Assembly: GCA_964291655.2 (NCBI GenBank)
Contig: OZ219802.1
Coordinates: 1,312,001 to 1,376,000, forward strand
Source: Chloroflexota bacterium
GTDB taxonomy: Bacteria > Chloroflexota > UBA11872 > VXOZ01
Direction: 5' to 3'
DNA: 64,000 nucleotides
Below the pieces are notes generated by a model. It had not been told where the DNA came from, did not search any database, and saw only the letters and a list, made by a program, of their open reading frames with translations. This document shows, in pieces, positions 2,432-22,533 of the stretch (its first letter is position 1; each line of letters starts with the position of its first letter). The translations under genes were made by a program, and so were the position numbers.

Positions 2432-3448
2432 TTAGTGTCTCAGCGACCTGATAATCGGACCCTCTGCCAACATCTGCGCGAGTTGCCCGGCGCGGTCAAC
2501 CCGTCCGAAATAGTTGCAGGGAATGACGTCGAACGGCTCCAGGCGGCGCATGAGTTCATCGAGCAGCAAGTTCTGGCCGATATTGTCAGTGGCGTAGTGA
2601 GGCAAACGCACCAGGGCGATGCCGTGCTCGCGGCAGGCCGCTACTGTCTCCGACCCCGCCGAGACTTGCACCACAGTTTGCACGCCAGCCTTTGCCAGCA
2701 ACGGAAATGCGCTGGGCGGATAGGCGTAGCCGCCGGCAAACTTCGCGTGCATGCGTCCGGTGAGCTGCGCCGGGTCGCCCGTCATGATACGGGGCACCGC
2801 GCCGATGCGCGCGGCTTCCTGCATTTCCGGTAGCGTCAGCATGAGTTCTACGACGTCGCCGACGGTCTCCGGCTCTTCGCGCGCAAAGAGCGCGTTGATG
2901 TATTGCCGGTGCGCATAGTCAACCGGTGTATGAATGCATGCCAGCGGATACCCAAGCAACTGCGCGGTATCGGGCCCGATGCGGTGCATGTCTTCGTGCT
3001 CCCGCAAGCGTGCCGCCATGAAGTCGAAGATGCAGGCGCGCGCCTCAGTTTCGGGTACACCTTCCCAAATGAGATAGTCGGCGTTGACCTCCATGAAGTC
3101 GGCGACGAGCGAAGCTGAGATGCCGACACTGTTCGTATGGTGGGAAATGAATGCGTCTATTGGGGTGCCCTTTGCCGCCAGTTGTACCCCAAGCAGCATC
3201 TCTTGCACGTGCAGGTTAATGCCGACGAGCGCAGTGCGAATCGGTGTTTCTGCCGGGCCGTGGGATATGCGCACGTCGCCGTAGGGATTACGAAAGCGCT
3301 CCTGATCGTAGAGTGCCTGCTGCCAAGCAGGCAGAGCGGCATACTCGTCGCGGCGTCGCTGTAGTTGGCGCTCTATGGCCGCCTGACCCCTGGGGTCAAG
3401 CTCGCGGCCGATTTCGATGGACGTCTCGTACAAATCACGTAGAGTCAT
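2432..3448 (-). CDS. NIF3-like (NGG1p interacting factor) metal-binding protein, paralog 1
   Basis: MTLRDLYETSIEIG..DPRG, ERFRNPYGDVRI, SHH, CIHTPVD, PHYATDNIGQNLL; clearly homologous to 12736..13701 and 13698..14666. Confidence 0.75.
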   Translation of the reverse strand: MTLRDLYETSIEIGRELDPRGQAAIERQLQRRRDEYAALPAWQQALYDQERFRNPYGDVRISHGPAETPIRTALVGINLHVQEMLLGVQLAAKGTPIDAFISHHTNSVGISASLVADFMEVNADYLIWEGVPETEARACIFDFMAARLREHEDMHRIGPDTAQLLGYPLACIHTPVDYAHRQYINALFAREEPETVGDVVELMLTLPEMQEAARIGAVPRIMTGDPAQLTGRMHAKFAGGYAYPPSAFPLLAKAGVQTVVQVSAGSETVAACREHGIALVRLPHYATDNIGQNLLLDELMRRLEPFDVIPCNYFGRVDRAGQLAQMLAEGPIIRSLRH

Positions 3449-3576: not shown

Positions 3577-3719
3577 CCCATCTGTACAATGGGTGAGTGC
3601 CTCGACTCCGGTTAGAGGGACCAATGAGGATGCTATTCTTACCCGCGTTTCGCATCCTGACCGGACGGCAGGCCACGGAAACCCGACAGGAAGCCATCGT
3701 TTCCGGCGAGGCAGGGAAG

Positions 3720-5078
3720 ATGTTGCGGCGAGTTGCGATTGTTGGCGGAGGTATTTCAGGTCTGGCCGCCGCCTGGGCGCTTAGTCATCACCCGGACCGC
3801 TTTGACTTCCGGCTGTACGAGGCGCAGGCCCAGATTGGCGGGAATGCGATTACGGCCGATATGCCGCAGGAAGACGGCTCCTCAATCCCTTTCGACATTT
3901 CCGTCACCGCCTGTATCCCGTCGGTCTACCATCACATTCTCTTGCTGATGGAGCAATTTGGCATTGATCTGATCGATACCAAGTTTAGCTACAGCGTGAA
4001 ATACCGCGGCCAAGTGTATGCCCACGACTTCGATTCCGAAATTAGAGAGCAACTGCGGTTCGAGATCCAGAAGTTCCAGCAACTCCTGCGGCGTCTCCAC
4101 TGGTTTGGCGGGCTGACTCGTTCCCAGTCGAAGCTGCTCAACGCTCTCAACCCCTTCAACTACCTAAGCATGGGGACGCTGCTGAATTGGGGAGCCTATT
4201 CCGGTGATTTCAGATTCAAGATTCTGAAGCCGATGTTCGTCAATTTTCTCATGGCGACGAACGTGTTCGATATGCCCGCGTCGCTCTTTGCGCGGTATCT
4301 TGAATTCTTCGACATCGAGAGCGCCACGCCGATGCAGACGTGGGACCAGGGAACGCGGCGTATCTACGAGAATCTATCGGCTGGTTTCCAAGACAAGATC
4401 TACCTCAGTAGGCCGGTACGCAAGGTGTGTCGACAGGAATCCCGCGTCGTGGTGGAGGACGAAGCCGGTGGCCGAGAGGTCTACGATGAAGTCATCTTCG
4501 CCTGCAACGCGAACCAGACGCTGATGATCCTCGACAAGCCCACGTTTCTGGAGCGGTATATTCTCTCTTCAATTCGCTACGAGAGCGAGCTGCACAACCA
4601 CACCGTCGTCCACTCGGATTCCTCAGTCTTGCCGGACAACGAGGTGAAGCCTCTGACAACCCGGAGCAATCACATCGAACAGTACGGCGCCAGGCCGGAC
4701 AACTATGAAATCACGTACATCATGCACAACCAGCAACCGTGGGCTAATCGCTCGGATAAGCCGTGCCTGGTGACGTATAACCCGATCAGTCCCATCGATG
4801 AGCGAAAGGTCGTGAAGAAGTGGTGGTTTCAGCACATCGTCCACGACGTGCGTCACGTCGCGTGGCTCGTGAACATCTTTCGCTTCATTCAGGGCAAGCG
4901 GCGGACGTGGCACTGCGGCGCGCACACCCTGGTCAACAGTCAAGAGACCTGCTTCGTGACCGGGCTCGCAGCGGCACGGCAGCTCGGTGCGAACTACCCC
5001 TTTGACAATCCCGGGGCAAGGCGCATGTTCAACTACTACGGCAGGATCATGTACGGTTGGCGCTTCAGGAAGGCGTAG
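3720..5078 (+). CDS. FAD-dependent oxidoreductase, COG2907-like (predicted lipid desaturase/reductase)
   Basis: N-terminal VAIVGGGISG dinucleotide motif, YEAQAQIGG, C-terminal IQGKRRTWHCGA...SQE; ATG 3720 preferred over the ORF-track start 3597. Confidence 0.75.
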   Translation: MLRRVAIVGGGISGLAAAWALSHHPDRFDFRLYEAQAQIGGNAITADMPQEDGSSIPFDISVTACIPSVYHHILLLMEQFGIDLIDTKFSYSVKYRGQVYAHDFDSEIREQLRFEIQKFQQLLRRLHWFGGLTRSQSKLLNALNPFNYLSMGTLLNWGAYSGDFRFKILKPMFVNFLMATNVFDMPASLFARYLEFFDIESATPMQTWDQGTRRIYENLSAGFQDKIYLSRPVRKVCRQESRVVVEDEAGGREVYDEVIFACNANQTLMILDKPTFLERYILSSIRYESELHNHTVVHSDSSVLPDNEVKPLTTRSNHIEQYGARPDNYEITYIMHNQQPWANRSDKPCLVTYNPISPIDERKVVKKWWFQHIVHDVRHVAWLVNIFRFIQGKRRTWHCGAHTLVNSQETCFVTGLAAARQLGANYPFDNPGARRMFNYYGRIMYGWRFRKA

Positions 5079-5206
5079 GGCTGCATGCCGCGGCTGCTCC
5101 TGAGTGTCTCAACCCTGTCAGCGAGTCTTGCCGCGACACCGCCCGCTAGCAAACCGTAGCACGGAAGCTTGTCCCCCGCTGGAGCGGCTGCGCCAGGGCG
5201 GAGAAG

Positions 5207-5430
5207 ATGGATTCCCGCGTGCGCGGGAATGACGGATGCGGTCAGCTTCCGTGGCAATGACGGATACTGCCCGCTTCCGCCGTGGCACGGCAATGACCGA
5301 TGCTCTCCGCTTCCGCCGTAGCGCGGGGGCTTGTCCCCCGCTCTTGTGCTTGAGCACGAAGGCTGAAGACCCGGTGGTGAAATGTGGTTGCGGGAAAGAG
5401 AAGATGAATTCCGGCTTGCACCGGAATGAC
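5207..5430. repeat. REP-like palindrome cluster
   Basis: ATGGATTCCCGCGTGCGCGGGAATGAC 5207..5233, GTAGCGCGGGGGCTTGTCCCCCGC 5318..5341, a further GGAATGAC copy ending near 5430. Confidence 0.8.
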
Positions 5431-5532
5431 GGACTGGGGTGTTGCCTGGTTTAAAGAGCTGGCGGGCCGATTCTTAAAGAGTCGACACAACCGATTACGC
5501 AACTTGGGGCTGTGCAAACTCCCGCTGAGGCA

Positions 5533-6585
5533 TCAAGAAGTCGCGTTGCCGTTTTCGCTCACGTCGGAATAGAATTGGGCGCAGTAGCGACGGTACCTGG
5601 TGATCTCGCCGTCGGAACGGCAGAGGCGCGGGCGGGACTGATACCGTTTGCGGCTCCAAATGACCTCATCTTGCCGTACTTCCCATACTTGCTGCGACGC
5701 GGTAAACCAGTTCATGATTGGCGCGCGCATGCCCACCGGCAGAAATCCCAGGCCTGCGAGCCAGCGTTTCGGCTTGCGCAACTCCCGCACTTGCGAGGCC
5801 AGCGACATGTCGATGAACGTGCCGTCCACCGGTGTCGCCAGCACCCAGAGACGCATGTCCATACCGATCGAGTGTTCGCGAATGTCCACGAATGAGTAGC
5901 CAAGCCCGTGGACATGCGTGTCGGCGGTAAGATCAAACGTGAGTTTTGCGACTCTCGCAATCGAACGGGTGGACCTGAAGTTGAAACGGCTCCTCAGATA
6001 GGGACCGTCCACAGACACCGGCTCAATACGTTCCACCTTGCCAAAGCCGTGGATGTAGCGCAGGTGGGCCAGGTCCACCGCGTTTTCCGAAGTCTCCTGG
6101 GGATGGCCGGCAAAGCGCACCGTGCGGATCGCGAGATCGCACCAATCGTCATCGTCGGACGCAACCGCGGGTAGGTGCCATTGCGGCTCCCGATCTTGAA
6201 TGCCATACCACGCAAAGATCATGCCGACGATCTCCTGCGTCTCAAACACCCGCAGGACAGTGTGCCGTGGCGCCGGGGCATACGGCGTGGCCACGCACGT
6301 GCCGGTGGCATCGAACTCATAGCCGTGAAATGGACATACCAGCCGGCCATCACGCACGCGCCCCCCGGCAGCAGGGCTCAGGTCGGAGCCCAGGTGCGGG
6401 CAATAGGCCTCGGCAACGCAGATTTGGCCACTATCGTCGCAATACACGACGATGTTCTCACCCATCCAGGTCTTGTGGATGAGCTTTTCTTTCTCGATGT
6501 CCTTGCGGCTGGCGACGAAGTACCAACCCTCCGGAAATGGAGAAGGTATGGCAGCAGACACGAGCATGGGGGAGGAGGTTTGCAT
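5533..6585 (-). CDS. Rieske non-heme iron oxygenase, sterol-acting type (Neverland/DAF-36, KshA, SdmA-like)
   Basis: FPEGWY; Rieske CPHLG...CPFHG; mononuclear Fe motif ENAVDLAHLRYIH; C-terminal QDEVIWSRKRY..P.LC..DG.I..YRRYCAQFY typical of this subfamily. Confidence 0.85.
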   Translation of the reverse strand: MQTSSPMLVSAAIPSPFPEGWYFVASRKDIEKEKLIHKTWMGENIVVYCDDSGQICVAEAYCPHLGSDLSPAAGGRVRDGRLVCPFHGYEFDATGTCVATPYAPAPRHTVLRVFETQEIVGMIFAWYGIQDREPQWHLPAVASDDDDWCDLAIRTVRFAGHPQETSENAVDLAHLRYIHGFGKVERIEPVSVDGPYLRSRFNFRSTRSIARVAKLTFDLTADTHVHGLGYSFVDIREHSIGMDMRLWVLATPVDGTFIDMSLASQVRELRKPKRWLAGLGFLPVGMRAPIMNWFTASQQVWEVRQDEVIWSRKRYQSRPRLCRSDGEITRYRRYCAQFYSDVSENGNATS

Positions 6586-6615
6586 AACTGAAATCCGGAC
6601 ACACTAAGTTGAGGA

Positions 6616-6649
6616 TTGACATGTGAGTGTCTGTCGGGTAGTGTACACT
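6616..6649 (+). promoter_or_regulatory. Candidate sigma70 promoter with overlapping palindromic operator
   Basis: TTGACA 6616..6621, 17-bp spacer, TAGTGT 6639..6644; AGTGTACACT 6640..6649 overlaps the -10. Confidence 0.45.
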
Positions 6650-6826
6650 TATAATAACATATGTCGTGTACATCCCCTACTGCCGCTAGGTTTACTATTG
6701 CCAGCGACTACATTTCGCTTCCCAATTTTCGCCCTACCCATTGCCCGTGAAGCCGAGTCATCACTTTCCGGTGGTGCGATGCGCCAGGGCGATCTGGACC
6801 AATCCTGACCCCTGGAGGCAACGCAA

Positions 6827-8860
6827 GTGACAATCGCAACCGACCGTGTAACCACCCATGAGCTGACGTTGCCTCAAGAACTCGTCCTGATGCTCCTCAA
6901 TGAGGAGACCGGCTACTTTCGCCAAGTGGCCGGCTGGGACCTCAACTGCGCCATCATCGGCGGCGTATTAGCGGAACTCTCGCTGAGAGCCCGTATTGAC
7001 ACAGACATGGAGTCTCTCAAACTCCTGGATCCGACTCCGACGGACAATCCAGTCTTGGATCCAATTCTGGAAAAGATTGCCGAGGAACCGGAAGCACATA
7101 ACGTGCAGTATTGGATCGAGCGGCTTGTTTTTCGCGCCCCGGCAATCGTCGACCAGATCATGGAACGCTTGGTTGAGTTGAAGATTCTGGACTACCACGA
7201 CGGTGAATTCTGGACGCTGTCCCGGTCTTCGTGGCGGACGGAACTGTACACCGACTTCCGTGAAGTCACTGCGGCGGAGTTCGTCGAGACACGCGTGAGC
7301 CGGGCGATCTTCGATAATGAGATTCCCAGCCCACGGGATGTCATCATCATCGCCCTTCTCAATACGTGCGATGTCCTGCGCTTCATATTTCAACTCGAAG
7401 AGGCCTCAGAGGAGCGAATCCAGACTATCTGTAGGATGGAGTTGATTGGCCGGTCCATCGCGGATGCGGTAGCCAACAACTTTGCCGGAGGCATGCTCCG
7501 GCGCTCCGCCCTTGCCAAATCGATTCCGGTTGTCCCATTGCACAAGGTTTTGCTGAATCCGCATTTGCGCAGCGGCAACATTGCGGCGATCTTTGCGGAA
7601 TTTGGAAATGAGTACGGCCCGGTGTTTCAGTTGCGCCCGCCCTTTTCCGAGCCACTGTATTTCATAGGCGGGCCCCGCGTAAATCAATGGGTGCAACGAA
7701 ACGGGCGGCAGTACCTACGGGCGCGGGATTACTTTGCCGACTTCGAGAAAGTCTTCGGCGCGTCCGGGCTCATACCCGCGGTGGATGGGGCCGACCACTT
7801 CCGGCTGCGCAAGGCCATGTCACCGGGGTATTCACGCGAGAGATTGGAAGCGCAACTGGATGAGGTCTATGGCAACGCCCGCACGTATATGGCGGATTGG
7901 AAGGTCGGTGACTCTTACTCTGCGCGGTCGCTGTGCCGGCGGATGATCAATGCGCAAATTTCGCCGTTCACCGTCAGCATTGATTCACAAGACATCGTCG
8001 ACGATCTCATGGCATACAAAGAACGGGGCCTCTGCACACACGTCGCGCGGGTTCTACCCAAGTTCATGCTCTATACCCCCGGCATGAGACGCCGGGCGAA
8101 AATCGTCAATGAGGTGACGAACCGGGTCCAGCAAGTCCATACGCCCGCCCAGCGCGCGGGTCGTCCACGGGATCTTGCGGATGACCTTCTCAGCCTTCAG
8201 GCCAGCGACCCGCAGTTCCTGCCGGAGTCGAATATGCCGTTCATGCTCTCGGCGCCGCTGCTTGCCAGCATGTACTTGGGCGATGCGCTGAGCTTTGCGG
8301 TCTACGCCATGGCGGCGCAGCCCGAAATCTACGCACGGATACAGAAAGAAGCCGACGCCTTGTTTAGCGATGGCGATCCCCAGGGCAAAGACTTCACCCT
8401 AGAAGCACTGGACGTGACGCACCGCTTCATCATGGAGGTCATGCGCATGTACCCGGTCGTGCCCATGTCTATTCGCAACGTCATGAACGCCTGCGTGGTG
8501 GAAGGCTTTGAGTTGCCGGTGGGCGCGCGGATCCATATTGCTACGACCGCCTCACACTACATGGAGAAGGCCTTTCCCGAACCCTTCAAATTCGACATTG
8601 AACGCTATACGGCGCCGCGCTTTGAGCATCGCAGCCGGGCGTACGCCCCCTACGGCCTGGGTACGCACACTTGTCTCGGCACCCGGTTTATGGAGCGGCA
8701 ACTGACAATCAACCTACTCATGATCGCGCACTACTTCACGCTCGAGGTATCCCCCGATAAGTTCAAGCACAAGCTCACGTTCAGCCCGTTCCCGTCCAAC
8801 AAACCGAGCGGAAAGCTGAAGTTCGTCATTTCCGATCAGAGACGCGAGATAAACGTCTAA
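6827..8860 (+). CDS. Cytochrome P450 with N-terminal GOLPH3/Vps74 (GPP34)-like domain
   Basis: First ~225 aa LTLPQELVLMLLNEETG...GGVLAELSLRARI...PTPTDNPVLD...WIERL resemble GPP34; C-terminal P450 has ExxR (EVMR), FDIERY and heme motif YGLGTHTCLG; GGAGG RBS before GTG. Confidence 0.85.
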   Translation: MTIATDRVTTHELTLPQELVLMLLNEETGYFRQVAGWDLNCAIIGGVLAELSLRARIDTDMESLKLLDPTPTDNPVLDPILEKIAEEPEAHNVQYWIERLVFRAPAIVDQIMERLVELKILDYHDGEFWTLSRSSWRTELYTDFREVTAAEFVETRVSRAIFDNEIPSPRDVIIIALLNTCDVLRFIFQLEEASEERIQTICRMELIGRSIADAVANNFAGGMLRRSALAKSIPVVPLHKVLLNPHLRSGNIAAIFAEFGNEYGPVFQLRPPFSEPLYFIGGPRVNQWVQRNGRQYLRARDYFADFEKVFGASGLIPAVDGADHFRLRKAMSPGYSRERLEAQLDEVYGNARTYMADWKVGDSYSARSLCRRMINAQISPFTVSIDSQDIVDDLMAYKERGLCTHVARVLPKFMLYTPGMRRRAKIVNEVTNRVQQVHTPAQRAGRPRDLADDLLSLQASDPQFLPESNMPFMLSAPLLASMYLGDALSFAVYAMAAQPEIYARIQKEADALFSDGDPQGKDFTLEALDVTHRFIMEVMRMYPVVPMSIRNVMNACVVEGFELPVGARIHIATTASHYMEKAFPEPFKFDIERYTAPRFEHRSRAYAPYGLGTHTCLGTRFMERQLTINLLMIAHYFTLEVSPDKFKHKLTFSPFPSNKPSGKLKFVISDQRREINV

Positions 8861-8899
8861 TGCACCATGGATCGCCCGAGAAACCGGGAAGGAGAGGGA

Positions 8900-9937
8900 C
8901 TAAACGGGCTTAAGAGCCAGGAAACAATATAGCGGCGTGAAGATCCCGGTCTTGCCGCCCGCGACGTAGGCGTTGGCAGTCCGATCCAGCAGCTTGACGA
9001 CACGGGCGGAGCCCGATGGGAACACCCCCAGCACCTCGGCCAACCTGGATGCCCCGAAAACTGCCTTGCGGCCCAGCGGAAGCCTGATAAGGGCGTTGCC
9101 GAGCGTTCCGTGCCGGGTCTCCATGGGCCGATACCACGGCGTGGTCGGACCGTTCTCCCCAACAGCCCGATCCCTCCCTTCTATGACCTGAAAACCCGCC
9201 GTTTCGAGGTCGCGGTTTACCTCGTCCATCGTCGCTATTTCTTTGAGCGCGATCCCGTGCATCAGTTCTTTCTCAATAGCTCGATGTCGCTCGTCACCGG
9301 GATTGAACTTGCTCGTCATGCACATTTCCTGGCCCCAGAACAGGGCCCCGGGTTTCAGCACGCGGTAGATCTCGGCAAACGCGCCCGCCTTGTCCGGCGC
9401 ATGGCACGTCGATTCAATCGCGTACCCCCGGTCGAATGTGTCGTCCGCGATAGCGTCCATGTTCATGAAGCTACACGCGAGGTAGTCGATCGCATGGTCG
9501 AGTCCCGCCTCGGCGTCCAACGATCTCGCCTTGTCCAACTGGATTTCGTTGCTATTGACCCCGACTACCCTGACTCCGGCCTCCCGGACGACGCGGCGCA
9601 GCGGGCCGCCGACCCCGCAACCGACATCGATCACCGTCATGCCCTCGCGCAACTCCAACTTGGCGATCATCAGCCGCTGGTGACGGATCTTGGAGTCCTC
9701 CAGGCTTTCATGGGGCGACAGCGGTGCGAAGTGAAGGGACTCACCCCAACCGAACTCCATGAACTCGCCGCAGAGGTCGTAGTATTCCTTGACGGTTTCG
9801 GTGTGGTCGTAGCCCGTCGGGACGGCGTCCTCCACGTGTGCTTTGTCCATCCAGCCATCGAAGCGATTCACGCGACTGTGGACATCCGTTCCACGGTATT
9901 GAGCCTTCAGCCGGTTGGATAGTTTGCGGATTTGCAA
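8900..9937 (-). CDS. Sterol 24-C-methyltransferase (ERG6/SMT family)
   Basis: YYDLCGEFMEFGWGESLHFAP, IDVGCGVGGP, YAIESTCHAP, IYRVLKPG and Sterol_MT_C-like tail VAGGKTGIFTPLYCFLALKP. Confidence 0.9.
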   Translation of the reverse strand: MQIRKLSNRLKAQYRGTDVHSRVNRFDGWMDKAHVEDAVPTGYDHTETVKEYYDLCGEFMEFGWGESLHFAPLSPHESLEDSKIRHQRLMIAKLELREGMTVIDVGCGVGGPLRRVVREAGVRVVGVNSNEIQLDKARSLDAEAGLDHAIDYLACSFMNMDAIADDTFDRGYAIESTCHAPDKAGAFAEIYRVLKPGALFWGQEMCMTSKFNPGDERHRAIEKELMHGIALKEIATMDEVNRDLETAGFQVIEGRDRAVGENGPTTPWYRPMETRHGTLGNALIRLPLGRKAVFGASRLAEVLGVFPSGSARVVKLLDRTANAYVAGGKTGIFTPLYCFLALKPV

Positions 9938-9964: not shown

Positions 9965-12424
9965 CTACTCGTAGCGCCGCTGCACGGCCTCGATTTCCAG
10001 GTCCAACTCATCCGCCCAGCGCTTCACCTTGGATCGCAGCCGGACATTCTGGTAGGCGCCCCAGATTGTCATCGCAGGTGGAACCAGCAGAATGGACACT
10101 AACAGCGAGTAGAGGATCGTGATGGATGCCGCAATTGCGAACTGCTGGGAAGCAAGCAGGGGCGAGGCAATTAGCGCGCCAAGTCCGAGCGCCGTCGTGA
10201 GCGCGGAACCCAACAGCGCCGAACCGGTGGTGGCGAGTGTCCGAATTGCCGCTTGCTCCGGGTCCCGACCGCGGGCGTATTCCTCCCGGTAGCGATGAAT
10301 CACGTGGATGGTGTAGTCCACCCCGATACCTACCGAGAGCGCCGTGATGATAGACGTGACGAGCGAATAGGGAATATCCAGCAGCGCCATGGTGCCCAAC
10401 ACCGAGATGAGCACGAGCACAATCGGGCCCACCGCGATGACGGATAGCACCGGCTGGCGCACCGTGATCCAGAAGAAGAGCGCCAGCACGCCGAGGGCCA
10501 CCGCGATGGTGGTAGTAATCGCTTCTGTCTGCCGTTCAGTAATGGCGTCCGTGATTGTGATACCAATGATGCCCTCAGATGTTGCTGCGATAGCGTTGTC
10601 ATCACCGATCCAGAGGTCCTCCAGGGACTCTTGGATTTGCTTCGCCTGATTGGTATCGCCCGAGTAGGCCGGGAACTGGATCAGCATTGCGTCAGTGCCG
10701 GCCGGATCGTTAACCAGGAGATACGAAAGCGTCGGGTCCAGGGATTGGAGCCTGTTGAGGAATTCCTGCATCAACCCGGCATCAAGTCTCAGTCCCGCCG
10801 AGGCTTCTTGGAAAAGGGCGGCAAGTTCAGAATCGTATTTGTCGCCGGGCTGACCGCTGTCGTGTATCCAGTCTCGCACGAGGAGCTCATACGATGCCTG
10901 GATTGGTCCCGCCGCGGCGGCGGGACGGCTCTCTTCGTCCGCGAAGGCAGCGGTCAAGTCCCGCAGGTTCAACAGCGTGCGGGTCTCTGTGGCCTCCGCT
11001 CTGATGAGCACACTAACTATCTCCGTTGAGCCGCCAATTGCCGCATCAATGGTGTCCAAGTCCGCCATCAGGGTGCCCCCTCTGGGCAGAATGTCGCGGA
11101 TGTTGAACTCAGACTTGATCCCTGTGGCTGCGTACCCCAGCGCGAGCGTAACCCCAAGCACAACAATGAGGTACGGCGCAGGCGCGCGCGTGATACTTTT
11201 GCCCAGCACGGTCGCCAATCCCTCGATTCCGGGCAATGCCGTAGCTACCAAGCGAGGCTGCTTAAGATTGCCCCGGGCTTCCCGCTGCCGGTCGATGATC
11301 GTCCGGCCGGCCGGAAGCAGCGTAAGCATCACGATGAGAGTCATGCCCACACCCAGTCCTGCGATCAAACCGAAATCACCAATGATTCCTATAGGGGAAA
11401 ACAGACTCACCAGCAGGCTCACGATTGTCGTGACGGCGGCCAGTACCAGCGGAATGGTGACTTTGCGCAGTCCGATCTGGGCGGCCGGTACCACCGCCTC
11501 GCCTTCGTGACGCTGCTCCCGGTAGTGCGAGACGATCTGAATCGCGTAGTCGACCGTAAGGCTGATTACGATGATCGGCACCATCGCGGTAAGCTGGTTT
11601 GGCGGTCCGGTGATGCCCAGCGCGTAGGGACCCAGCCAGCCTTCCACACCAACGATCCACATCAGCGAAATAAACAGACCGGCCAGCGTGAGCAATAAAT
11701 CAGTCAACGTACGCAGGAAAAGCAGGATTAGCCCCGCGATGAGCAAGAGCGCCAGCCCGATCAACGGCCCCATGCCTTCTTGGGTAGCTTTCTTGTACTC
11801 GTCCTCGATTATCGCGGGTGAAACGCTGCTCACCTGCAGCGTACCCTCAGACGCGGCTGCAAGTTCGTCAATTTTGCGTTCAGCGTCGTCAATGCGCTCA
11901 TCACCCGTGTCCCGCAGACGAACAATGGCAATCGCCACCTCTGTACCATCCGTATCGGTGCCGGTCAGGGCGTCAAGCGCCGCCTGAATCTCGGGTGGGC
12001 CGCGGGCCGCGTTGATTTGCTCCTGTGTGATGGACGTGACGTTGTCCGTTTGGAGCACAGCCTTGATCAACAACACGGGCGCGACGAGGGGATTGACCGG
12101 CGCGAAGAGCTCCTGAACGGCAGGATCGGCGACGATCTCGTTGATCAGGGCATCCATCTGCGCCAGACCGTCAGGCGTCAGCGCGTCTCCACGGAAGATG
12201 AGCGTCACCACATTGGCTTCGCCGGATTCGCCAAAGAGCTCATCGATTTCAGCAATGGCGTCGGCAACGGTACTCCCTGGAGGAAGTATTGCCTCGTCTC
12301 CGGGAGGAGGCGCACGCCGTACCGCCCCGGCAGTCAGGAAAACGGTTATGTTCAGGATGACGAAAATCGTGATCCAAGGGCGGGCTGTAACAAAGCGGCT
12401 CAGCCTACCAAGTTGATTCTCCAT
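9965..12424 (-). CDS. MMPL/RND-family lipid transporter
   Basis: 819 aa with duplicated architecture, SLTVDYAIQ and GIGVDYTIHV TM motifs, two extracytoplasmic loops; ends 27 bp before the SMT start. Confidence 0.85.
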   Translation of the reverse strand: MENQLGRLSRFVTARPWITIFVILNITVFLTAGAVRRAPPPGDEAILPPGSTVADAIAEIDELFGESGEANVVTLIFRGDALTPDGLAQMDALINEIVADPAVQELFAPVNPLVAPVLLIKAVLQTDNVTSITQEQINAARGPPEIQAALDALTGTDTDGTEVAIAIVRLRDTGDERIDDAERKIDELAAASEGTLQVSSVSPAIIEDEYKKATQEGMGPLIGLALLLIAGLILLFLRTLTDLLLTLAGLFISLMWIVGVEGWLGPYALGITGPPNQLTAMVPIIVISLTVDYAIQIVSHYREQRHEGEAVVPAAQIGLRKVTIPLVLAAVTTIVSLLVSLFSPIGIIGDFGLIAGLGVGMTLIVMLTLLPAGRTIIDRQREARGNLKQPRLVATALPGIEGLATVLGKSITRAPAPYLIVVLGVTLALGYAATGIKSEFNIRDILPRGGTLMADLDTIDAAIGGSTEIVSVLIRAEATETRTLLNLRDLTAAFADEESRPAAAAGPIQASYELLVRDWIHDSGQPGDKYDSELAALFQEASAGLRLDAGLMQEFLNRLQSLDPTLSYLLVNDPAGTDAMLIQFPAYSGDTNQAKQIQESLEDLWIGDDNAIAATSEGIIGITITDAITERQTEAITTTIAVALGVLALFFWITVRQPVLSVIAVGPIVLVLISVLGTMALLDIPYSLVTSIITALSVGIGVDYTIHVIHRYREEYARGRDPEQAAIRTLATTGSALLGSALTTALGLGALIASPLLASQQFAIAASITILYSLLVSILLVPPAMTIWGAYQNVRLRSKVKRWADELDLEIEAVQRRYE

Positions 12425-12735: not shown

Positions 12736-13701
12736 CTAGTTGCGCTTGACGCGCTCGAAGTAGTTACATGCTATGACGTTGAGCGGCCCTAGGCGCTGCT
12801 CAACCTTATCGAGCAATAGGTTGAGACCCACATTATCGCACGCGCCATGGGGCATGCGCACCCAGCCCATACCGAGTTCTTCCGCTATCTTCTGGTGCTC
12901 AGGCGGGCAGCCAATGGTGACGAACGTGCCGACTCCGGCCTCCCTCAGCAGCGGGATCACCTCAAAGGGAAACATCCAACCACCGCCGTCCTGGTGGAAG
13001 ATCCGGCCCGCCGGCTGCTCGGCATCACCTGCCATAATGCGCGGGATCGCGCCAATGCGCGCCGCACCTTGGAACTCCGGGAGCGCCAGCAACGCCTGCA
13101 CCACGTCTCCCACCGTCTCCGCGTTCGCTGCCGCGATGGCGCCGCGCACACCCCGGCCGTGATGGAAGTCGGCGGGCGTATGGATGCACGCCAGCGGAAA
13201 CTCCAGCAGTTGCGCCATGTCGATGCCGTTGCGGTTGAAGTCCTCGGCGTAGTTCCAGCGGTCGGTCATCATGTCCGCGATGTGGGGCTCGGCGTCGGCC
13301 CGGGCAACACCCGCGCCTTCAAGCAGGTCCACGAGATAGGGCACTGTATCATAGATCAGCGTATCCGCCGGTACCCCGATGCCGTTGGTATGGTGGGAGA
13401 TGACGGCATCGATTCGCGTGCCGTTGGCGCGCAGATGGTCCGCCAGCAGAAGCTCCTGCGTGCCGATGTTTATGCCCATGAGGATGGTATCGAGTTCCGT
13501 GTCCTCCGGGCCGTTCACGATGCGCACGTCGCCGTAGGGATTGTTGAAGCGCTCCTGGTCGTAGTACGGCTTGCGCCAGTCCGCCAGCGCTGTATACTCC
13601 TGCCGTCGCCGTTCAAGCTGGCGGTCAAGGGCTTCACGCCCCCTAGGATCGACCTCACGGCCGATTTCGATGGAAGTTTCGTAGAGCTCGCGTAAGGTCA
13701 T
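12736..13701 (-). CDS. NIF3-like protein, paralog 2
   Basis: Same motifs as paralog 1 (SHHTNG, CIHTPAD, PHGACDNVGLNLL). Confidence 0.75.
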   Translation of the reverse strand: MTLRELYETSIEIGREVDPRGREALDRQLERRRQEYTALADWRKPYYDQERFNNPYGDVRIVNGPEDTELDTILMGINIGTQELLLADHLRANGTRIDAVISHHTNGIGVPADTLIYDTVPYLVDLLEGAGVARADAEPHIADMMTDRWNYAEDFNRNGIDMAQLLEFPLACIHTPADFHHGRGVRGAIAAANAETVGDVVQALLALPEFQGAARIGAIPRIMAGDAEQPAGRIFHQDGGGWMFPFEVIPLLREAGVGTFVTIGCPPEHQKIAEELGMGWVRMPHGACDNVGLNLLLDKVEQRLGPLNVIACNYFERVKRN

Positions 13702-14666
13702 CGCTCGTTACGCCTAATTCGCTCGAAGTAGTTGCACGGAATGACATTGAGCGGTCCCAAGCGGCGCTCTACCTCATCCAGCAGTAAATTGATGCCAATG
13801 TTGTCGCACGCCGCGTGGGCAATGCGCACAATCGCTACGCCCGCCCCCTGTGCCGCTAACGCTTGCGTCGGTGTGCACCCAATTTGCACCACGGTGTTCA
13901 CGCCTGCCTTGCCGAGCAGCGTGTACGCGTCCGGCGGCAAGCCGTACCCGCCGCCAAACTTGAGCAGCATGCGCCCGGCAGGCCATCTTGCTTCCCCACT
14001 CATCACACGCGGCTCAACGCCAATATGCGCCGCGCTCTGCACCTCCGGTATCACCATGAGCGCCCGCACCACGTCAGCAACGGTCTCGGGCCTTGCAGCT
14101 TCCACCACAGGCCGGACGCCTTCGCCAATGTAGTAATCTGCCGGCGTATGGATGCAGGCCAGCGGGAAGCCGAGCAACGCTGCCATGTCGGGGCCCATGC
14201 GTGCCGTATCTTCAAGCGCCTGCTCTTTTTCCTCGATGTAACGGTTGATGCACGCCTCGGCGTCTCCGCGCGGCACGCCTTCACCTGCCAGAAAATCTAT
14301 CGCTACCGGCATGAAGTCATGTACCAGCGAGATAGCGATGCCGATACCATTGGTATGGTGCGCGATTACGGCATCGATCTTGGTACCCTTGCTGCGCAGC
14401 CGGTCGGCCAGCAGGAGTTCGTCGAGGCCGATGTTGATGCCGAGCAGGACTGTCTGAAGCTCCACGTCCGCCGGGCCGTTGACGATACGCACGTCGCCAA
14501 AGGGATTGCGAAACCGCTCTTGATCGTAGAAGGGCTGCTCCCAATCGGGCAGGGCTGCGTATTCCGCCCGGCGCTGCTCGAGTTGCTGTTGAAGAGCTGC
14601 CTCTCCCCGCACGTCAAGCGCCATGCCGAGTTGTATTGAAGTCTCGTAGAGTTCTCGCAGTGTCAT
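13698..14666 (-). CDS. NIF3-like protein, paralog 3
   Basis: MTLRELYETSI start aligned with the paralogs; ATGA overlap with paralog 2 (translational coupling). Confidence 0.75.
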   Translation of the reverse strand: MTLRELYETSIQLGMALDVRGEAALQQQLEQRRAEYAALPDWEQPFYDQERFRNPFGDVRIVNGPADVELQTVLLGINIGLDELLLADRLRSKGTKIDAVIAHHTNGIGIAISLVHDFMPVAIDFLAGEGVPRGDAEACINRYIEEKEQALEDTARMGPDMAALLGFPLACIHTPADYYIGEGVRPVVEAARPETVADVVRALMVIPEVQSAAHIGVEPRVMSGEARWPAGRMLLKFGGGYGLPPDAYTLLGKAGVNTVVQIGCTPTQALAAQGAGVAIVRIAHAACDNIGINLLLDEVERRLGPLNVIPCNYFERIRRNER

Positions 14667-14988
14667 GTTGGCACTCTTCGTTTCGCTAACTTGCACCTAT
14701 TGTAGCGCATTGGCAAACCGCAGCCGAAATCGAGGTGCGTAAAGCCCTTGGCAAGGTGAGCAAACAGCTTTCCACCTGGCATTTTGCTTGAGAGAGCACC
14801 CGCTCCACGCAGCCATGGCGGCTCAAGTTGCACACTACGAGCGGCCGGCAGTTGTGCGGTCAGTCCTCATACAGGCTAATGGGGGCAGCAAATCAGCATT
14901 TTGGCGCTCTCACCCGACAAATGCGGGCTCTATCGTTTAGAATTGCGTTGTAGCATGAATGCCGCATCAAACACAAGGATGTGACACG

Positions 14989-15471
14989 ATGCAAATCGCG
15001 AACCAGTATTCGTTCATCTTCATCGGGGTCTTCGTGGTATCACTTTGCATTTTTGCCGCCGCTCAGTGGTTTCCGGGGACCATTGGCTTGCTGGCTATAC
15101 TCCTCTCGCTGGTTGGCTTCATTGCGATTGGCTCGGTCTCGCGGTATCGAGATGACGATACCAGTGGGACTCCGCCGGATGCCCTGATCGGTAGAGGACT
15201 GCCGGTGCTGTTAGCCGTGTATTCTAATTTCTGAGCGGGGTGCCTTGTGGCACGCCCCATCGTCGATGGGATAGAACGCGATCTTGGCGACGCAGTGCGG
15301 GTCATCCGGCTGAACCGGCACACGCCGGCGGGACGGGCGATTACGGCCCGCCTTGGCTTGCGCCTGGTGCCGTCCTTCGTGGTCTTCGACGGGCAGGGCG
15401 AGGTACGGCTGCGCAAGGATGGCATTGTGATCAAGCACCAGCCGGTGCTGGATGCGCTCGGCCACGAGTAG
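14989..15471 (+). CDS. Membrane-anchored thioredoxin-fold probable selenoprotein (UxxC)
   Basis: ORFs 14959..15234 and 15247..15471 share a frame, separated by one TGA (15232..15234): LLAVYSNF-U-AGC-LVARPIVDGIE...LVPSFVVFD; two N-terminal TM helices; 160 aa. Confidence 0.85.
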
Positions 15472-15742
15472 CTGGTCCTCTTCTCGGCCAACGGGACGCG
15501 CGGCGTGATTGCAAATTCGCCGTCCCAGCACCGCTTCTCCGGGCCCTGCCACGGAATCAATAACTCCTGCCGCGACGACGCCCCACCGCCACTCGAGTGC
15601 TGAGTGCGGGAGGGATACGCTGCCTGCATCAAGATGGAGCAAGCATTCCTCCTCGTTTTGGAGTAACGGCCTGATCCCTATTTTCGCAGTGTGCTATAGT
15701 TTCAATACAACAATGGGAAGACGGTCGGAACGGATAGACGCA

Positions 15743-16333: not shown

Positions 16334-17419
16334 ATGAGCGACCCGCGCTATACTGTAGAGAAACTTTCTCTCGCCCTCGAGGAGCATGTCGTGAGCAAGC
16401 AAACAGTGCTGCCGCCGTTGCAGTCCGAAGAACAACTCATGGCGCAGATGACCGCGCCCACGCCGGAAGTGTGTACAGCGGTGCAGGCGCTGGACGGCGA
16501 CATCATGGTGCTGGGTGTGGCGGGCAAGATGGGCCCTACGCTCGCGGAGCTATTGGTGCACGCGGGGGCCAAGCGCGTGATCGGCGTTTCGCGCTTTTCC
16601 TCTCCGGACTCGCGCCGTTACTTGGATAGCGTCGGCGTGGAGACGGTGGCCTGCGACTTGCTGGACGACGCAAGCGTGGCCAAGCTGCCGGATGCGCCGT
16701 ATCTTTACTTGCTGGCGGGGTTCAAGTTCGGCTCCAGCGGCGCGCCTTCCCTGAACTGGGCCATGAATACGCTCGTGCCGGCCAAGCTCATGGAGCGCTT
16801 TCCCAATTCCCGCATGGTCTACGTGTCTTCCGGCAACGTCTACCGCTTCATGCCGGTGGACGGCGGTGGCGCTGATGAAGACGCGCCCCTGGGGCCGGTG
16901 GGTGAATACGCCGAATCCCGCCTGGGCGGCGAGCGCCTGGTGGAATACTACGCAGAAAAGAACAGCACCCCTACCCTCATCGTGCGGCTCTTCTACGCCA
17001 CGGAACTGCGCTACGGCATCATCCTGGATATCGCTACCAAGGTGAATGACCGGACGCCAATCGACCTATCTATGGGCTACGTAAATCAGATTTGGCAGGG
17101 CGACGCCTGCGACATGCTCGCCCGCTCGTTCCCGCTCTGCGCAAGTCCTGCTGACGTGATTAATCTGACCGGCACGGAAACCCTTTCCGTGCAAGCGGTG
17201 GCTGAGGCTTTGGGTGAACGGCTCGGTGTCGCGCCGATCTTCACCGGGAAGCCGGAGGCTACGGCGCTACTGGGCGATGCGACGCGCTACGTGGAGACCT
17301 TCGGCGCGCCCCGCGTACCGGCGGAACAGATTATCGACTGGGTTGCCACGTGGGTCAAGCACGAAGGCGCGACGCTGGGCAAGCCGACGAAATACGAGAG
17401 CAGGACGGGGGATTTCTAA
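16334..17419 (+). CDS. NAD-dependent epimerase/dehydratase family protein
   Basis: LGVAGKMG Rossmann motif, SSGNVY, GEYAESRLG (YxxxR variant). Confidence 0.75.
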   Translation: MSDPRYTVEKLSLALEEHVVSKQTVLPPLQSEEQLMAQMTAPTPEVCTAVQALDGDIMVLGVAGKMGPTLAELLVHAGAKRVIGVSRFSSPDSRRYLDSVGVETVACDLLDDASVAKLPDAPYLYLLAGFKFGSSGAPSLNWAMNTLVPAKLMERFPNSRMVYVSSGNVYRFMPVDGGGADEDAPLGPVGEYAESRLGGERLVEYYAEKNSTPTLIVRLFYATELRYGIILDIATKVNDRTPIDLSMGYVNQIWQGDACDMLARSFPLCASPADVINLTGTETLSVQAVAEALGERLGVAPIFTGKPEATALLGDATRYVETFGAPRVPAEQIIDWVATWVKHEGATLGKPTKYESRTGDF

Positions 17420-21312: not shown

Positions 21313-21687
21313 GCTTTCACCTGACACCAATTGTCTCAGCACGTACTGCTGTCCGTGCATTCACGTACGCCAGCCACACTCAAATTGCTCAACAACGGGG
21401 GCAAAAGCGTCTTGTCATTGCTCTGCGGCCTCTGCGCCCAACGGTAGTCATTGCGTGCCGCCTCGCGCCTCCGCATTGCCAGCGCTCACCTGGCTGGTAG
21501 AAGTGGCCGGTCTATCAAGCGCTTTCACGATGACGCGCTTCGATTCTAGGCCTGTATGCAGGTATCTTACCACGTTGGACAGGCTGCGACGGTTGACGAG
21601 CAGGGCGTCGGATTTACAAGTGATATACTTGGACTGGCTAGGCGGCGTATACAGTGAAAGAGCAGATTCGCAAAAGCGCGTGTGCCC

Positions 21688-22533
21688 ATGCAAAGCGTCA
21701 ATTCTGACCCGTTTCTTAGCAAATTCAATCCACTCGACCGCATCCTCTTTGCCGATAACTTCGACACCGGCATGTGCGGCTGGAGCGAGTTGATCGGCAA
21801 CTACGAGGGCAGCCTGGATACGATTCTGCCGCCCTTCCGCGACCTGCGTCCGCCCATGCTGAGCAGCGCGACCATGTGGGACACCGGCACGGCCGGATCG
21901 CTCTCCGGCACGTACTCGCTCAAGCTCGCCACCCGCGCCCGCGCCGGACATCTGGCGGTGGCGGTTAAGCGCGCGACGTGGCGCAAGAAGGGGCGCGTCC
22001 AAGTGGAGTGCTACTTCGCGGTCAAGCCCGAAGCCAGCGCACTGACGCTGGGTGATCACGACGTCGGCAGCTTTGGGGTCTTCTTCGATCTGCAGGACAA
22101 CGAGCAGCGCGCCATGCCGCATCTGCGCTACTGCAATGTCGAACCGGGCATGCCCCGCTACCAGTGGCAATACCGCGATGAACTACCGTCTCGCCACGTG
22201 GTCGGCCACAGCGGTGAGATAAAGTCCTTCTTTCACCTGGACCGGCGCGGCTGGAAAGACATTCCCAACGCGCAGCAGCGGCTCTGCTACAACGAACTGC
22301 CCACCAAGTTCAACTGGCATTACCTGCGGTTTACGTGCGATCTGCATACCATGAATTACGCCGAACTCCAGTGCAATGACCACACGTTTGCCTTGAGCGA
22401 CCTCTCGCCCATTCGCGCGCCCACCGATGCCGACCTCTGGTGCATGCTGAATACGGCCTTCTTTGTTGAGACGGCTACCGACAGGCGGGCATTCCTTTAT
22501 TTGGATTCGGTGGTCGTTTCGCTGGAGGAGTAG
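21688..22533 (+). CDS. Conserved hypothetical protein (resembles DUF6772)
   Basis: Long ORF with typical codon bias; LIGNYE, LRPPMLS..TMWDTGT, YSLKLATR; family assignment from memory only. Confidence 0.55.
   Translation: MQSVNSDPFLSKFNPLDRILFADNFDTGMCGWSELIGNYEGSLDTILPPFRDLRPPMLSSATMWDTGTAGSLSGTYSLKLATRARAGHLAVAVKRATWRKKGRVQVECYFAVKPEASALTLGDHDVGSFGVFFDLQDNEQRAMPHLRYCNVEPGMPRYQWQYRDELPSRHVVGHSGEIKSFFHLDRRGWKDIPNAQQRLCYNELPTKFNWHYLRFTCDLHTMNYAELQCNDHTFALSDLSPIRAPTDADLWCMLNTAFFVETATDRRAFLYLDSVVVSLEE

Follow-up and report, generated by a model that had tools for sequence, protein, structure and literature searches.

A GPP34-cytochrome P450 fusion of a Chloroflexota bacterium and its conserved neighbourhood of candidate sterol-tailoring genes

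The fusion gene, its two domains and its spread

In the present study, we analysed a stretch of 64,000 nucleotides from a Chloroflexota bacterium (contig OZ219802.1 of assembly GCA_964291655.2, positions 1,312,001 to 1,376,000), hereafter called the window. The gene under study encodes an N-terminal GPP34 domain, the domain of the eukaryotic proteins GOLPH3 and Vps74, fused to a C-terminal cytochrome P450. It was found to lie among genes for a flavin adenine dinucleotide (FAD)-dependent oxidoreductase, a Rieske oxygenase, a sterol C-24 methyltransferase (SMT) and an RND transporter (Table 1), and genes of these classes recurred around its relatives. The architecture of the fusion is not new; its link to sterol tailoring is the part added here.

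The original prediction, made from the sequence alone, had described a 677-residue open reading frame (ORF) with a GPP34-like N-terminus followed by a complete P450. The N-terminal assignment was confirmed by Pfam, in which GPP34 (PF05719) matched residues 15–216 with an E-value of 6.3e-28 and 98.6 bits against a cut-off of 29.1, over profile positions 1–199 of 201. The P450 family (PF00067) matched residues 245–665 (E 4.4e-37; 128.4 bits, cut-off 22.8), and the ExxR motif and the haem-thiolate loop were both in place. The word "complete" holds for these elements and fails for the I helix, where the acid-alcohol pair is missing in the subfamily to which the window's protein belongs. In NCBIfam the fusion fell into no named family (best score 67 bits against a cut-off of 800). 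Structure prediction, a check proposed with the original prediction, returned a confident two-domain model of the whole fusion from a 115-row alignment in AlphaFold2 (mean predicted local distance difference test, pLDDT, 91.9; predicted template-modelling score, pTM, 0.88). This model superseded a poor run on a shallow 21-row alignment (pLDDT 58.9, pTM 0.44). The block of residues 221–230, in the linker, had a mean pLDDT of 59. Judging by the pTM of the whole chain, the GPP34 and P450 domains would be packed in a fixed arrangement. The two domains predicted as a complex of separate chains gave scores of 0.01 and 0.00; this run was made without controls and is not used as evidence.

The GTG start was preceded, 10–14 nt to its 5' side, by GGAGG, and the start codon was ATG in relatives (G>A at 6827 in contigs from runs X5, X8 and X9). 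A consensus promoter scan detected no site in the 6586–6826 spacer, and a promoter and terminator scan of 5000–9200 returned two promoter-like and three terminator-like sites, with no excess over shuffled sequences. No RNA runs were present among the listed sequencing runs that hold the stretch. The G+C content was 0.52–0.56 over 6500–7400, which comprises the divergent spacer and the GPP34-coding part, against 0.58–0.59 for the two contigs of the genome; the low value is weakly consistent with acquisition by transfer.

The fusion was found to be genuine. The domain junction, near 7514, was crossed by contigs from four runs of four studies: X1 record 1 covered 6600–8960 with 0 differences, X8 record 17 covered the whole 2.4-kb stretch, X9 record 26 covered 6764–9000 and X5 record 9 covered 6613–7879. 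Both Pfam domains were present in 120 of 120 homologues among the matches listed, which were 644–697 aa long and 64–100% identical. The architecture was also counted over one genome per prokaryotic species, as the original prediction had suggested, and at least 766 loci of at least 770 matched stretches, complete chromosomes included, encoded a relative of the fusion. When 48 long relatives, taken as 50%-identity representatives, were tested, 42 contained GPP34 together with P450, with P450-domain identity down to 26%. GPP34-P450 fusions are a large and diverse superfamily, since both domains are carried at so many loci and in such diverse representatives. That two adjacent genes were joined by an assembly artefact, the concern raised by the original prediction, or by an error of gene calling is ruled out by the single frame, the junction-spanning contigs of four studies, the related stretches and the representatives. 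Among the same 48 representatives, three P450-domain relatives carried a C-terminal cyclic-nucleotide-binding domain, and one relative of 872 aa had two N-terminal GPP34 domains (P0257, P0266, P0268 and P0202 are the proteins concerned, including the double-GPP34 one).

By record label, 78 loci that were fetched around relatives of the fusion spanned at least eight phyla: Chloroflexota, Latescibacterota, Nitrospirota, Binatota, Verrucomicrobiota, Gemmatimonadota, Thermodesulfobacteriota and Rhodothermota. A FastTree phylogeny was made from 72 proteins of the window's subfamily, excluding ORFs outside 640–860 aa or without the conserved GPP34 motif. All non-Chloroflexota phyla formed one shallow group nested among the Chloroflexota, with the Rhodothermota row inside Latescibacterota and the Thermodesulfobacteriota row inside Binatota. 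The topology fits cross-phylum transfer, subject to the usual caveats on the labels of metagenome-assembled genomes. Runs labelled as sponge metagenome, X9 among them, held 0.29–0.43 of the sampled words of the window stretch. As regards a restriction of the family to sponges, related sequence was found in these sponge-labelled runs, and most other run and genome labels were coded or uninformative.

Table 1. Features of the fusion gene and of its neighbourhood (positions in the window)
Feature	Position	Strand	Remarks
FAD-dependent oxidoreductase, amine-oxidase fold	3597..5078	+	Pfam Amino_oxidase, NAD_binding_8
KshA-like Rieske non-haem iron oxygenase	5533..6585	-	Pfam Rieske, KshA_C; divergent from the fusion
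Divergent intergenic region	6586..6826	.	241 bp; carries GGAGG ribosome-binding site at 6813-6817
GPP34-P450 fusion gene (P0001)	6827..8860	+	677 aa, single ORF, GTG start, no internal stop
GPP34 domain, acidic	6869..7474	+	residues 15-216 (Pfam); beta-hairpin residues 121-131
Linker and proline-rich start of the P450 fold	7475..7558	+	residues 217-244; P234 kept in 41/41 diverse fusions
Cytochrome P450 domain	7559..8821	+	residues 245-665 (Pfam)
Non-canonical I-helix motif	8273..8293	+	residues 483-489, without acid-threonine pair
ExxR motif (EVMR)	8435..8446	+	E537-R540
Haem-thiolate loop (YGLGTHTCLG)	8651..8680	+	residues 609-618; C616
SMT	8900..9937	-	Pfam Methyltransf_11, CMAS, Sterol_MT_C; convergent with the fusion, 39-bp gap
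RND transporter (MMPL/HAE3 type)	9965..12424	-	Pfam MMPL, Sterol-sensing, Patched; upstream of the SMT on the same strand

Conserved neighbours and sterol-synthesis capacity

The FAD oxidoreductase had its best PDB matches in LkcE (1.6e-27) and in 2b9w (2e-11), which is deposited as a "putative aminooxidase" and which we take to be a fatty-acid double-bond isomerase. The best PDB match of the Rieske protein was the 3-ketosteroid 9alpha-hydroxylase KshA (1.3e-29). Its identification as SdmA, the sterol C-4 methyl oxidase, was ruled out, as NCBIfam NF052579 gave 42.4 bits against 600, over residues 21–179. The transporter matched the NCBIfam HAE3 and HpnN-like models, both below cut-off. In the SMT the Sterol_MT_C domain scored above its cut-off, and the same model gave 0 matches in 14 control genomes. 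Metagenomic bacterial SMTs related to this one were reported to methylate sterols in vitro (PMC10070321).

The survey of neighbourhoods covered the window's subfamily and one paralogue. The 78 loci, 61 of which had full 10-kb flanks, were searched with tblastn for partner genes within 10 kb of the fusion relative. A Rieske/KshA_C gene was found in 64 loci, an SMT in 47 and the FAD oxidoreductase in 47. The MMPL-type RND transporter was present in 37 loci and an AcrB-type transporter, often with a membrane-fusion and an outer-membrane protein, in 22, so that one or other type was found in 59. At least one partner class was present in 74 loci and all four in 29; when only the full-flank loci were considered, all four were present in 25 and none in three (L061, L075 and L077). 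The remaining partner-free locus, L079, lay on a contig of 2.9 kb. Any sterol-specific partner was found in 47 loci, and ORF clustering added an ERG4/ERG24 reductase in 11. The FAD oxidoreductase was more conserved across phyla (77–90% identity) than the fusion (about 65%), the SMT (median 74%) and the Rieske protein (median 65%).

A fused squalene epoxidase-oxidosqualene cyclase (SE-OSC) of 1,273 aa, which scored 725 bits against the NCBIfam model for oxidosqualene cyclase, was found in six loci (L018, L030, L041, L055, L057 and L076). All six also contained ERG24 and a true CYP51, defined as a protein of at least 77% identity to a reference copy. CYP51 matches in 12 further loci were rejected as cross-hits on the fusion's own P450 domain. 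The original prediction had set the P450 beside eukaryotic sterol P450s, and the sterol context was borne out by the counts of the four partner classes and by these six loci. The SE-OSC was contained in one frame of about 1,270 aa (L041, 14134–17955, with matching genes in the other five loci). PMC10070321 lists in its supplement a sponge metagenome cluster in which a single gene id was hit by both the ERG1 and the ERG7 query.

The genome that holds the window (3.47 Mb in two contigs, 97.55% complete, not closed) contained 0 matches to the squalene/oxidosqualene cyclase family PF13243 and 0 to the squalene epoxidase family PF08491. No CYP51 was found in it either, its only other P450 having a canonical I helix and 26% identity to CYP51. 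A de novo sterol cluster, defined as a cyclase together with CYP51, was hence absent from this genome. It contained one Sterol_MT_C gene and one KshA_C gene, each of them flanking the fusion, and two ERG4/ERG24-family reductases in tandem about 250 kb away (G000:C2:1069601-1071849; L118 8452–10853). The tandem genes were flanked by solute-binding proteins and peptidases, not by sterol genes.

We also examined 401 genomes sampled evenly over the phylum; the counts were made by hand from tables, and related genomes are not independent. The fusion subfamily was present in 31 genomes and the SMT in 32; both were found in 28, the fusion alone in three and the SMT alone in four. The SMT match lay no more than 60 bp from the 3' end of the fusion in 20 genomes. 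With the oxidosqualene-cyclase model TIGR03463, a match of oxidosqualene cyclase (OSC) grade was obtained in only one of the 401 genomes (G363; 745 bits, 1,277-aa frame), five of the 401 being counted in this overall tally only; the other cyclase matches were at most 298 bits and hopene-cyclase-like. One of the 31 fusion-bearing genomes had an OSC-grade match. None of ten same-genus genomes, several of them single-contig, had a TIGR03463 match, and G006–G008 were also without PF13243. Ten more fusion-bearing genomes from several phyla contained no cyclase (five), a hopene-cyclase-like one only (three) or the SE-OSC (two). The module is thus found mostly where sterols cannot be made de novo.

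Several other ORFs around the fusion were considered as members of the module and excluded, because in tblastn they recurred in only 2–3 of the 78 loci: 2432–3448 (-), 12736–13701 (-), 13698–14696 (-) and 15063–15632. The first three, of 320–340 aa and without a Pfam match, recurred in two of the 78 loci only, both from close relatives. No NCBIfam family was found for the ORFs 2432–3448, 12736–13701, 13698–14696 and 16334–17419. Elsewhere in the window, an IS481-like transposase with rve and HTH domains (26667–27860, -), a Type ISP restriction-modification enzyme of 1,187 aa (49656–53219, +) and a DUF6772 protein (E 1.3e-114; 21682–22533, +) were found.

The published family and the two domains

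Proteins of sponge symbionts combining GPP34 and P450 have already been named GPP34_L (PMC11706023, Microbiome 2025). In that paper they made up 656 of 663 long GPP34 proteins, belonged to a length class of 620–700 aa, were monophyletic and were reported from sponge symbionts only. Rare GPP34-Rieske and GPP34-ABC (ATP-binding cassette) fusions were described as well, the short GPP34 form was enriched in sponge symbionts, and in 8 of 13 and 17 of 19 genomes the short GPP34 genes had a P450 gene no more than five genes away (PMC11706023). The window's protein belongs to GPP34_L by its N-terminal GPP34, its C-terminal P450 and its length. According to PMC11706023, symbiont GPP34 would bind host phosphatidylinositol 4-phosphate (PI4P) and lead to evasion of phagocytosis. 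A count of the word "sterol" over the main text and spreadsheet supplement of PMC11706023, which leaves aside the PDF supplement with the flanking-gene figure, gave 0. Conversely, 0 occurrences of "P450" were counted over the main text and the examined supplements of PMC10070321, and 0 of "GPP34" and of "Golgi" in PMC9531527. In the literature searched, no paper tying the GPP34-P450 fusion to sterols was found, and the work on GPP34_L and that on sterol and SMT clusters of sponge symbionts did not mention each other.

A profile of 19 GPP34 domains matched GOLPH3 (3kn1) at 1.9e-8 and Vps74 at 9e-8, and by this comparison the N-terminal domain is to be regarded as a true GOLPH3/Vps74 homologue. 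In the AlphaFold2 model it consisted of a helical core and a projecting hairpin with strands 121–124 and 128–131; the hairpin tip was aromatic, and F128 was invariant in 21 close relatives. The GOLPH3 residues that form the PI4P pocket are W81, R90, R171 and R174 (PMC2806290). In the sequence alignment, W81 was kept as W37, whereas R90, R171 and R174 were replaced by I44, P105 and V108, with the limit that the R171 region follows an insertion and could be shifted by a few residues. Even W37 was present in no more than about 10 of the 41 diverse fusions and was lost in most other fusion subfamilies. The net charge of residues 1–229 was -17, and it ranged from -13 to -25 in the 21 close relatives with a median of -11 in the 41 diverse fusions. 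Binding of PI4P by this domain appears unlikely, given its strong acidity and a pocket with most residues replaced, and the PI4P part of the original prediction is given up on the same two grounds. None of the hydrophobic stretches of the fusion resembled a signal peptide or an added transmembrane helix; the top 19-residue window lay inside the GPP34 core.

In microsomal P450s an N-terminal membrane anchor is carried at the proline-rich start of the P450 fold. The GPP34 domain was found to be joined just before this start, marked by P234. The original prediction had the domain replacing the transmembrane anchor of eukaryotic sterol P450s; the anchor-like position was borne out, the place of the anchor in microsomal P450s being established knowledge. 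By inference, the domain may recruit the P450 to the membrane or present its substrate, as the original prediction had it. In GOLPH3, the hairpin inserts into the bilayer and a negatively charged groove binds the basic tails of membrane enzymes (PMC13408441), and the beta-hairpin mediates oligomers in crystals of Vps74 and GOLPH3 (PMC2806290). The joining site, the conserved aromatic hairpin tip and the GOLPH3 precedent are compatible with an adaptor role.

The genome was found to contain a second, free-standing GPP34 gene of the short form (219 aa, Pfam E 1.2e-45; G000:C2:517074-521068; L004 8075–12069), located between two genes with a neutral/alkaline ceramidase N-terminal domain, which is another lipid-enzyme context. 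Three related genomes contained a divergent GPP34-P450 paralogue (33% identity; p450 Pfam 222–241 bits) followed directly by an Acyl_transf_3 membrane acyltransferase (L115 9365–12567; L116 1272–4509; L117 7272–10472); in L117 the paralogue was split into frames of 450 and 197 aa. The GPP34 domain is thus portable, and its P450, Rieske, ABC, ceramidase-like and acyltransferase partners all act on or in membranes.

In the P450 domain, E537 and R540 were conserved in all 41 diverse fusions; among 115 relatives, E537 and C616 were invariant and R540 was kept in at least 90%. Foldseek with the AlphaFold2 model gave a best target-normalised TM score of 0.83, to the CYP51 of Methylococcus, with 0.78–0.80 to CYP184A1 and a range of 0.75–0.83 for solved P450s. 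Together with the PDB sequence search, it placed the domain among class E, eukaryote-like P450s (CYP51, CYP184A1, CYP120, BM3, CYP46A1 and CYP17A1). No orthologue was identified by the PDB sequence search, Foldseek or NCBIfam. The domain matched CYP51 (6mi0) at 1.5e-17, whereas the true CYP51 of the clusters matched the Methylococcus CYP51 at 3e-104. The fusion is ruled out as the 14-alpha-demethylase of the clusters, because its P450 domain has 24% identity over 219 residues to their true CYP51 and because a separate true CYP51 coexists with it in all six SE-OSC loci. This 490-aa P450 was found in all five SE-OSC-bearing genomes that were searched, and in those three in which positions were compared (G001, G002 and G004) its distance from the fusion was about 7 kb or less. 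In net charge the P450 domain was basic, +8 here and with a median of +8 in the 41 diverse fusions. We go no further than calling it a putative sterol oxidase or desaturase, with the side chain as its probable site.

A proposed sterol-tailoring role and its comparison with known systems

We propose that the fusion is a cytoplasmic, two-domain enzyme of the GPP34_L family and the P450 member of a horizontally spread sterol-tailoring module, whose other members would be the FAD oxidoreductase, the KshA-type Rieske oxygenase, the SMT and the RND transporter with its sterol-sensing domain. The substrates would be sterols from outside, because the genome itself has no cyclase, squalene epoxidase or CYP51. 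The sponge host is the likely source, because sponge-metagenome runs hold related sequence and the published family is borne by symbionts. The P450 may hydroxylate or desaturate a sterol, probably in its side chain, in a step that feeds or follows that of the adjacent SMT. The GPP34 domain may hold the enzyme at a sterol-bearing membrane by means other than PI4P, with its hydrophobic beta-hairpin, with its acidic surface gripping a basic segment of a membrane partner, or with both. Taken as a whole, the proposal of a P450 that tailors exogenous sterols and carries an adaptor domain independent of PI4P is somewhat better than an even bet (about 0.55). The sterol-module part is by itself rather likely, and the adaptor part falls a little short of even odds.

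Several findings weigh against this proposal. The window's subfamily, which supplied 8 of the 41 aligned diverse fusions, has a one-residue deletion in the I helix and no conserved acid-threonine pair, whereas the pair was kept in 28 of the 33 diverse fusions outside it. In most P450 monooxygenases, the I-helix acid-alcohol pair delivers the protons with which oxygen is activated. The pair is known to be missing in substrate-assisted monooxygenases and in peroxide-rearranging P450s, which work without redox partners, and sterol C-22 desaturases are not known to carry the I-helix threonine. Because the pair is missing, the subfamily may contain no ordinary monooxygenase. Among genes of 100 aa or more, neither a ferredoxin nor a reductase was found in the module. 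Like the P450, the Rieske protein belonged to no characterised NCBIfam family. An SMT was missing within 10 kb in 31 of the 78 loci, and the three full-flank loci without any partner, together with three same-genus genomes that carry the fusion without an SMT, point the same way. The divergent paralogue is paired with a membrane acyltransferase in a non-sterol context. In eight genomes of the phylum sample (G095, G122, G365, G245, G285, G325, G062 and G373), three of them of the window's own genus, the fusion was interrupted by stops, split or reduced to an N- or C-terminal remnant, and it is on this account dispensable and decaying in some lineages. For the adaptor part, the loss of three of the four pocket residues is unfavourable, and the acidity of the GPP34 domain argues against electrostatic binding to anionic bacterial membranes.

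Other explanations share some of this evidence. The P450 could act as proposed while GPP34 has a role within the molecule, be it structural, regulatory or in oligomerisation, such as capping a channel or the redox-partner face or forming hairpin dimers like those of Vps74. The high pTM of the whole chain, the pairing of an acidic N-domain with a basic P450 domain here and in the diverse fusions, the conserved linker and the hairpin-mediated oligomers in the Vps74 and GOLPH3 crystals (PMC2806290) all speak for it. The domain, however, also occurs free beside P450 genes and fused to Rieske and ABC proteins (PMC11706023), and in the present genome it stands free between ceramidase-like genes, a pattern that suits a portable adaptor better than a P450-specific lid; we regard this explanation as unlikely, yet deserving of attention. 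It is a good deal less probable that the module acts on non-sterol lipids, for instance on hopanoids, carotenoid-like polyenes or fatty acyl chains, and that the sterol-like annotations mislead. Such a substrate would agree with the genome's lack of a cyclase, with the squalene-hopene-cyclase-like cyclases that are the only ones in some fusion-bearing genomes, with the resemblance of the FAD enzyme to LkcE and 2b9w, which their depositors did not name as sterol enzymes, with the presence of the CYP184A1-oleic acid complex and P450 BM3 among the top Foldseek matches, and with the sub-cut-off likeness of the transporter to the hopanoid transporter HpnN. What it leaves unaccounted for is the Sterol_MT_C domain of the adjoining SMT, with its clean result in the control genomes, the closeness of the Rieske protein to the steroid hydroxylase KshA, the sterol-sensing domain of the transporter, the occurrence of the same fusion subfamily with SE-OSC and CYP51 in six loci, and the in vitro sterol methylation by related bacterial SMTs (PMC10070321).

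Two further explanations are very unlikely on the present evidence. According to the published proposal, GPP34_L would be a released, host-directed factor whose binding of host PI4P alters phagosome maturation and favours persistence in the sponge, with the P450 as an accessory (PMC11706023). The report of the family from sponge symbionts only and the enrichment of the short form there (PMC11706023) agree with this, as do the words of the stretch held by sponge-metagenome runs, with the contig of X9 over 6764–9000, and the true homology of the domain. An N-terminus unlike a signal peptide, a strongly acidic domain with one of four PI4P-pocket residues kept, that one being lost in most subfamilies, and sterol-enzyme or transporter partners flanking the gene in 74 of 78 loci make it very improbable; a covalently attached haem enzyme would, moreover, need haem and, for ordinary turnover, reducing partners. 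The module could also belong to de novo sterol synthesis in this bacterium, its early genes being unassembled or replaced by unrecognised analogues. The six related loci in full de novo clusters and the unclosed state of the two-contig genome leave some room for this, whereas the missing cyclase, squalene epoxidase and CYP51, the negative results in all ten same-genus genomes and the single OSC-grade match among the 31 fusion-bearing genomes reduce the chance to a very small one.

The proposed sterol tailoring can be extended into a bolder and doubtful picture, in which sponge bacteria incapable of sterol synthesis remodel host sterols with a mobile five-gene kit and GPP34 acts as a PI4P-independent, prokaryotic, GOLPH3-like client adaptor. 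The P450, with its degenerate oxygen-activation motif, the Rieske oxygenase and the FAD enzyme would install the unsaturation or hydroxyl needed by the SMT, the ERG4-like reductases would finish the side chain, and the RND pump would return the product. The acidic GPP34 module would dock the soluble oxygenases onto a membrane protein or a sterol-laden membrane. If true, bacteria would, through this kit and without de novo synthesis, be a source of those unusual alkylated sponge sterols that serve as biomarkers. Irrespective of this extension, the sole published functional idea for GPP34_L, a PI4P effector against host phagocytosis, fits the sequence poorly, in view of the lost pocket, the acidic domain and the lack of an export signal. 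The GPP34_L literature and the sterol and SMT-cluster literature on sponge symbionts describe genes that are physical neighbours. As most carriers of the module are without an oxidosqualene cyclase, it can be asked in a testable way whether symbionts modify host sterols behind the alkylated sterols of sponges. Bacterial GPP34, a domain of unknown function, gains a concrete assay, in which proteins with the domain are compared with proteins lacking it for sterol-P450 activity and for association with membranes or partners.

When compared with the published GPP34_L, the fusion shares architecture and length class, and the phyla overlap. Nitrospirota are named among the phyla with GPP34_L only and Chloroflexota among the symbiont genomes analysed (PMC11706023), and the 78 loci add others. 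It differs from that account, built on PI4P binding and phagocytosis, in being tied to sterol genes and in a PI4P pocket that is not conserved. The ERG24-CYP51-LSS clusters (PMC9531527) and SMT clusters (PMC10070321) of sponge symbionts share with the present loci a habitat signal, the SMT family and evidence of cross-phylum transfer. Six of the 78 loci are such clusters, and the single ERG1/ERG7 gene id of PMC10070321 matches the SE-OSC fusions seen here. Those two papers deal with de novo synthesis, whereas the present module is mostly found in genomes without an OSC-grade cyclase.

GOLPH3 and Vps74 (3kn1, 2zih and 2zii) have a homologous helical core with a projecting hairpin, and their W81 corresponds to W37; the bacterial domain differs in being fused to an enzyme, in having no PI4P signature and in lying outside any COPI or Golgi setting. 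CYP51, including the Methylococcus CYP51-ferredoxin fusion (6mcw and 7snm), is among the best structural (TM 0.83) and PDB sequence (E 1.5e-17) matches of the P450 domain, and the Methylococcus enzyme is likewise a sterol-cluster P450 that occurs as a natural fusion protein. In the present fusion, however, the partner is N-terminal and is not a redox domain, and the I-helix motif differs. Microsomal class II sterol P450s act on membrane-embedded sterols, as the present fusion probably would, and they carry an additional N-terminal element directly ahead of the proline-rich start, as GPP34 is located before P234; here the element is a soluble helical domain of 215 aa and not a transmembrane helix.

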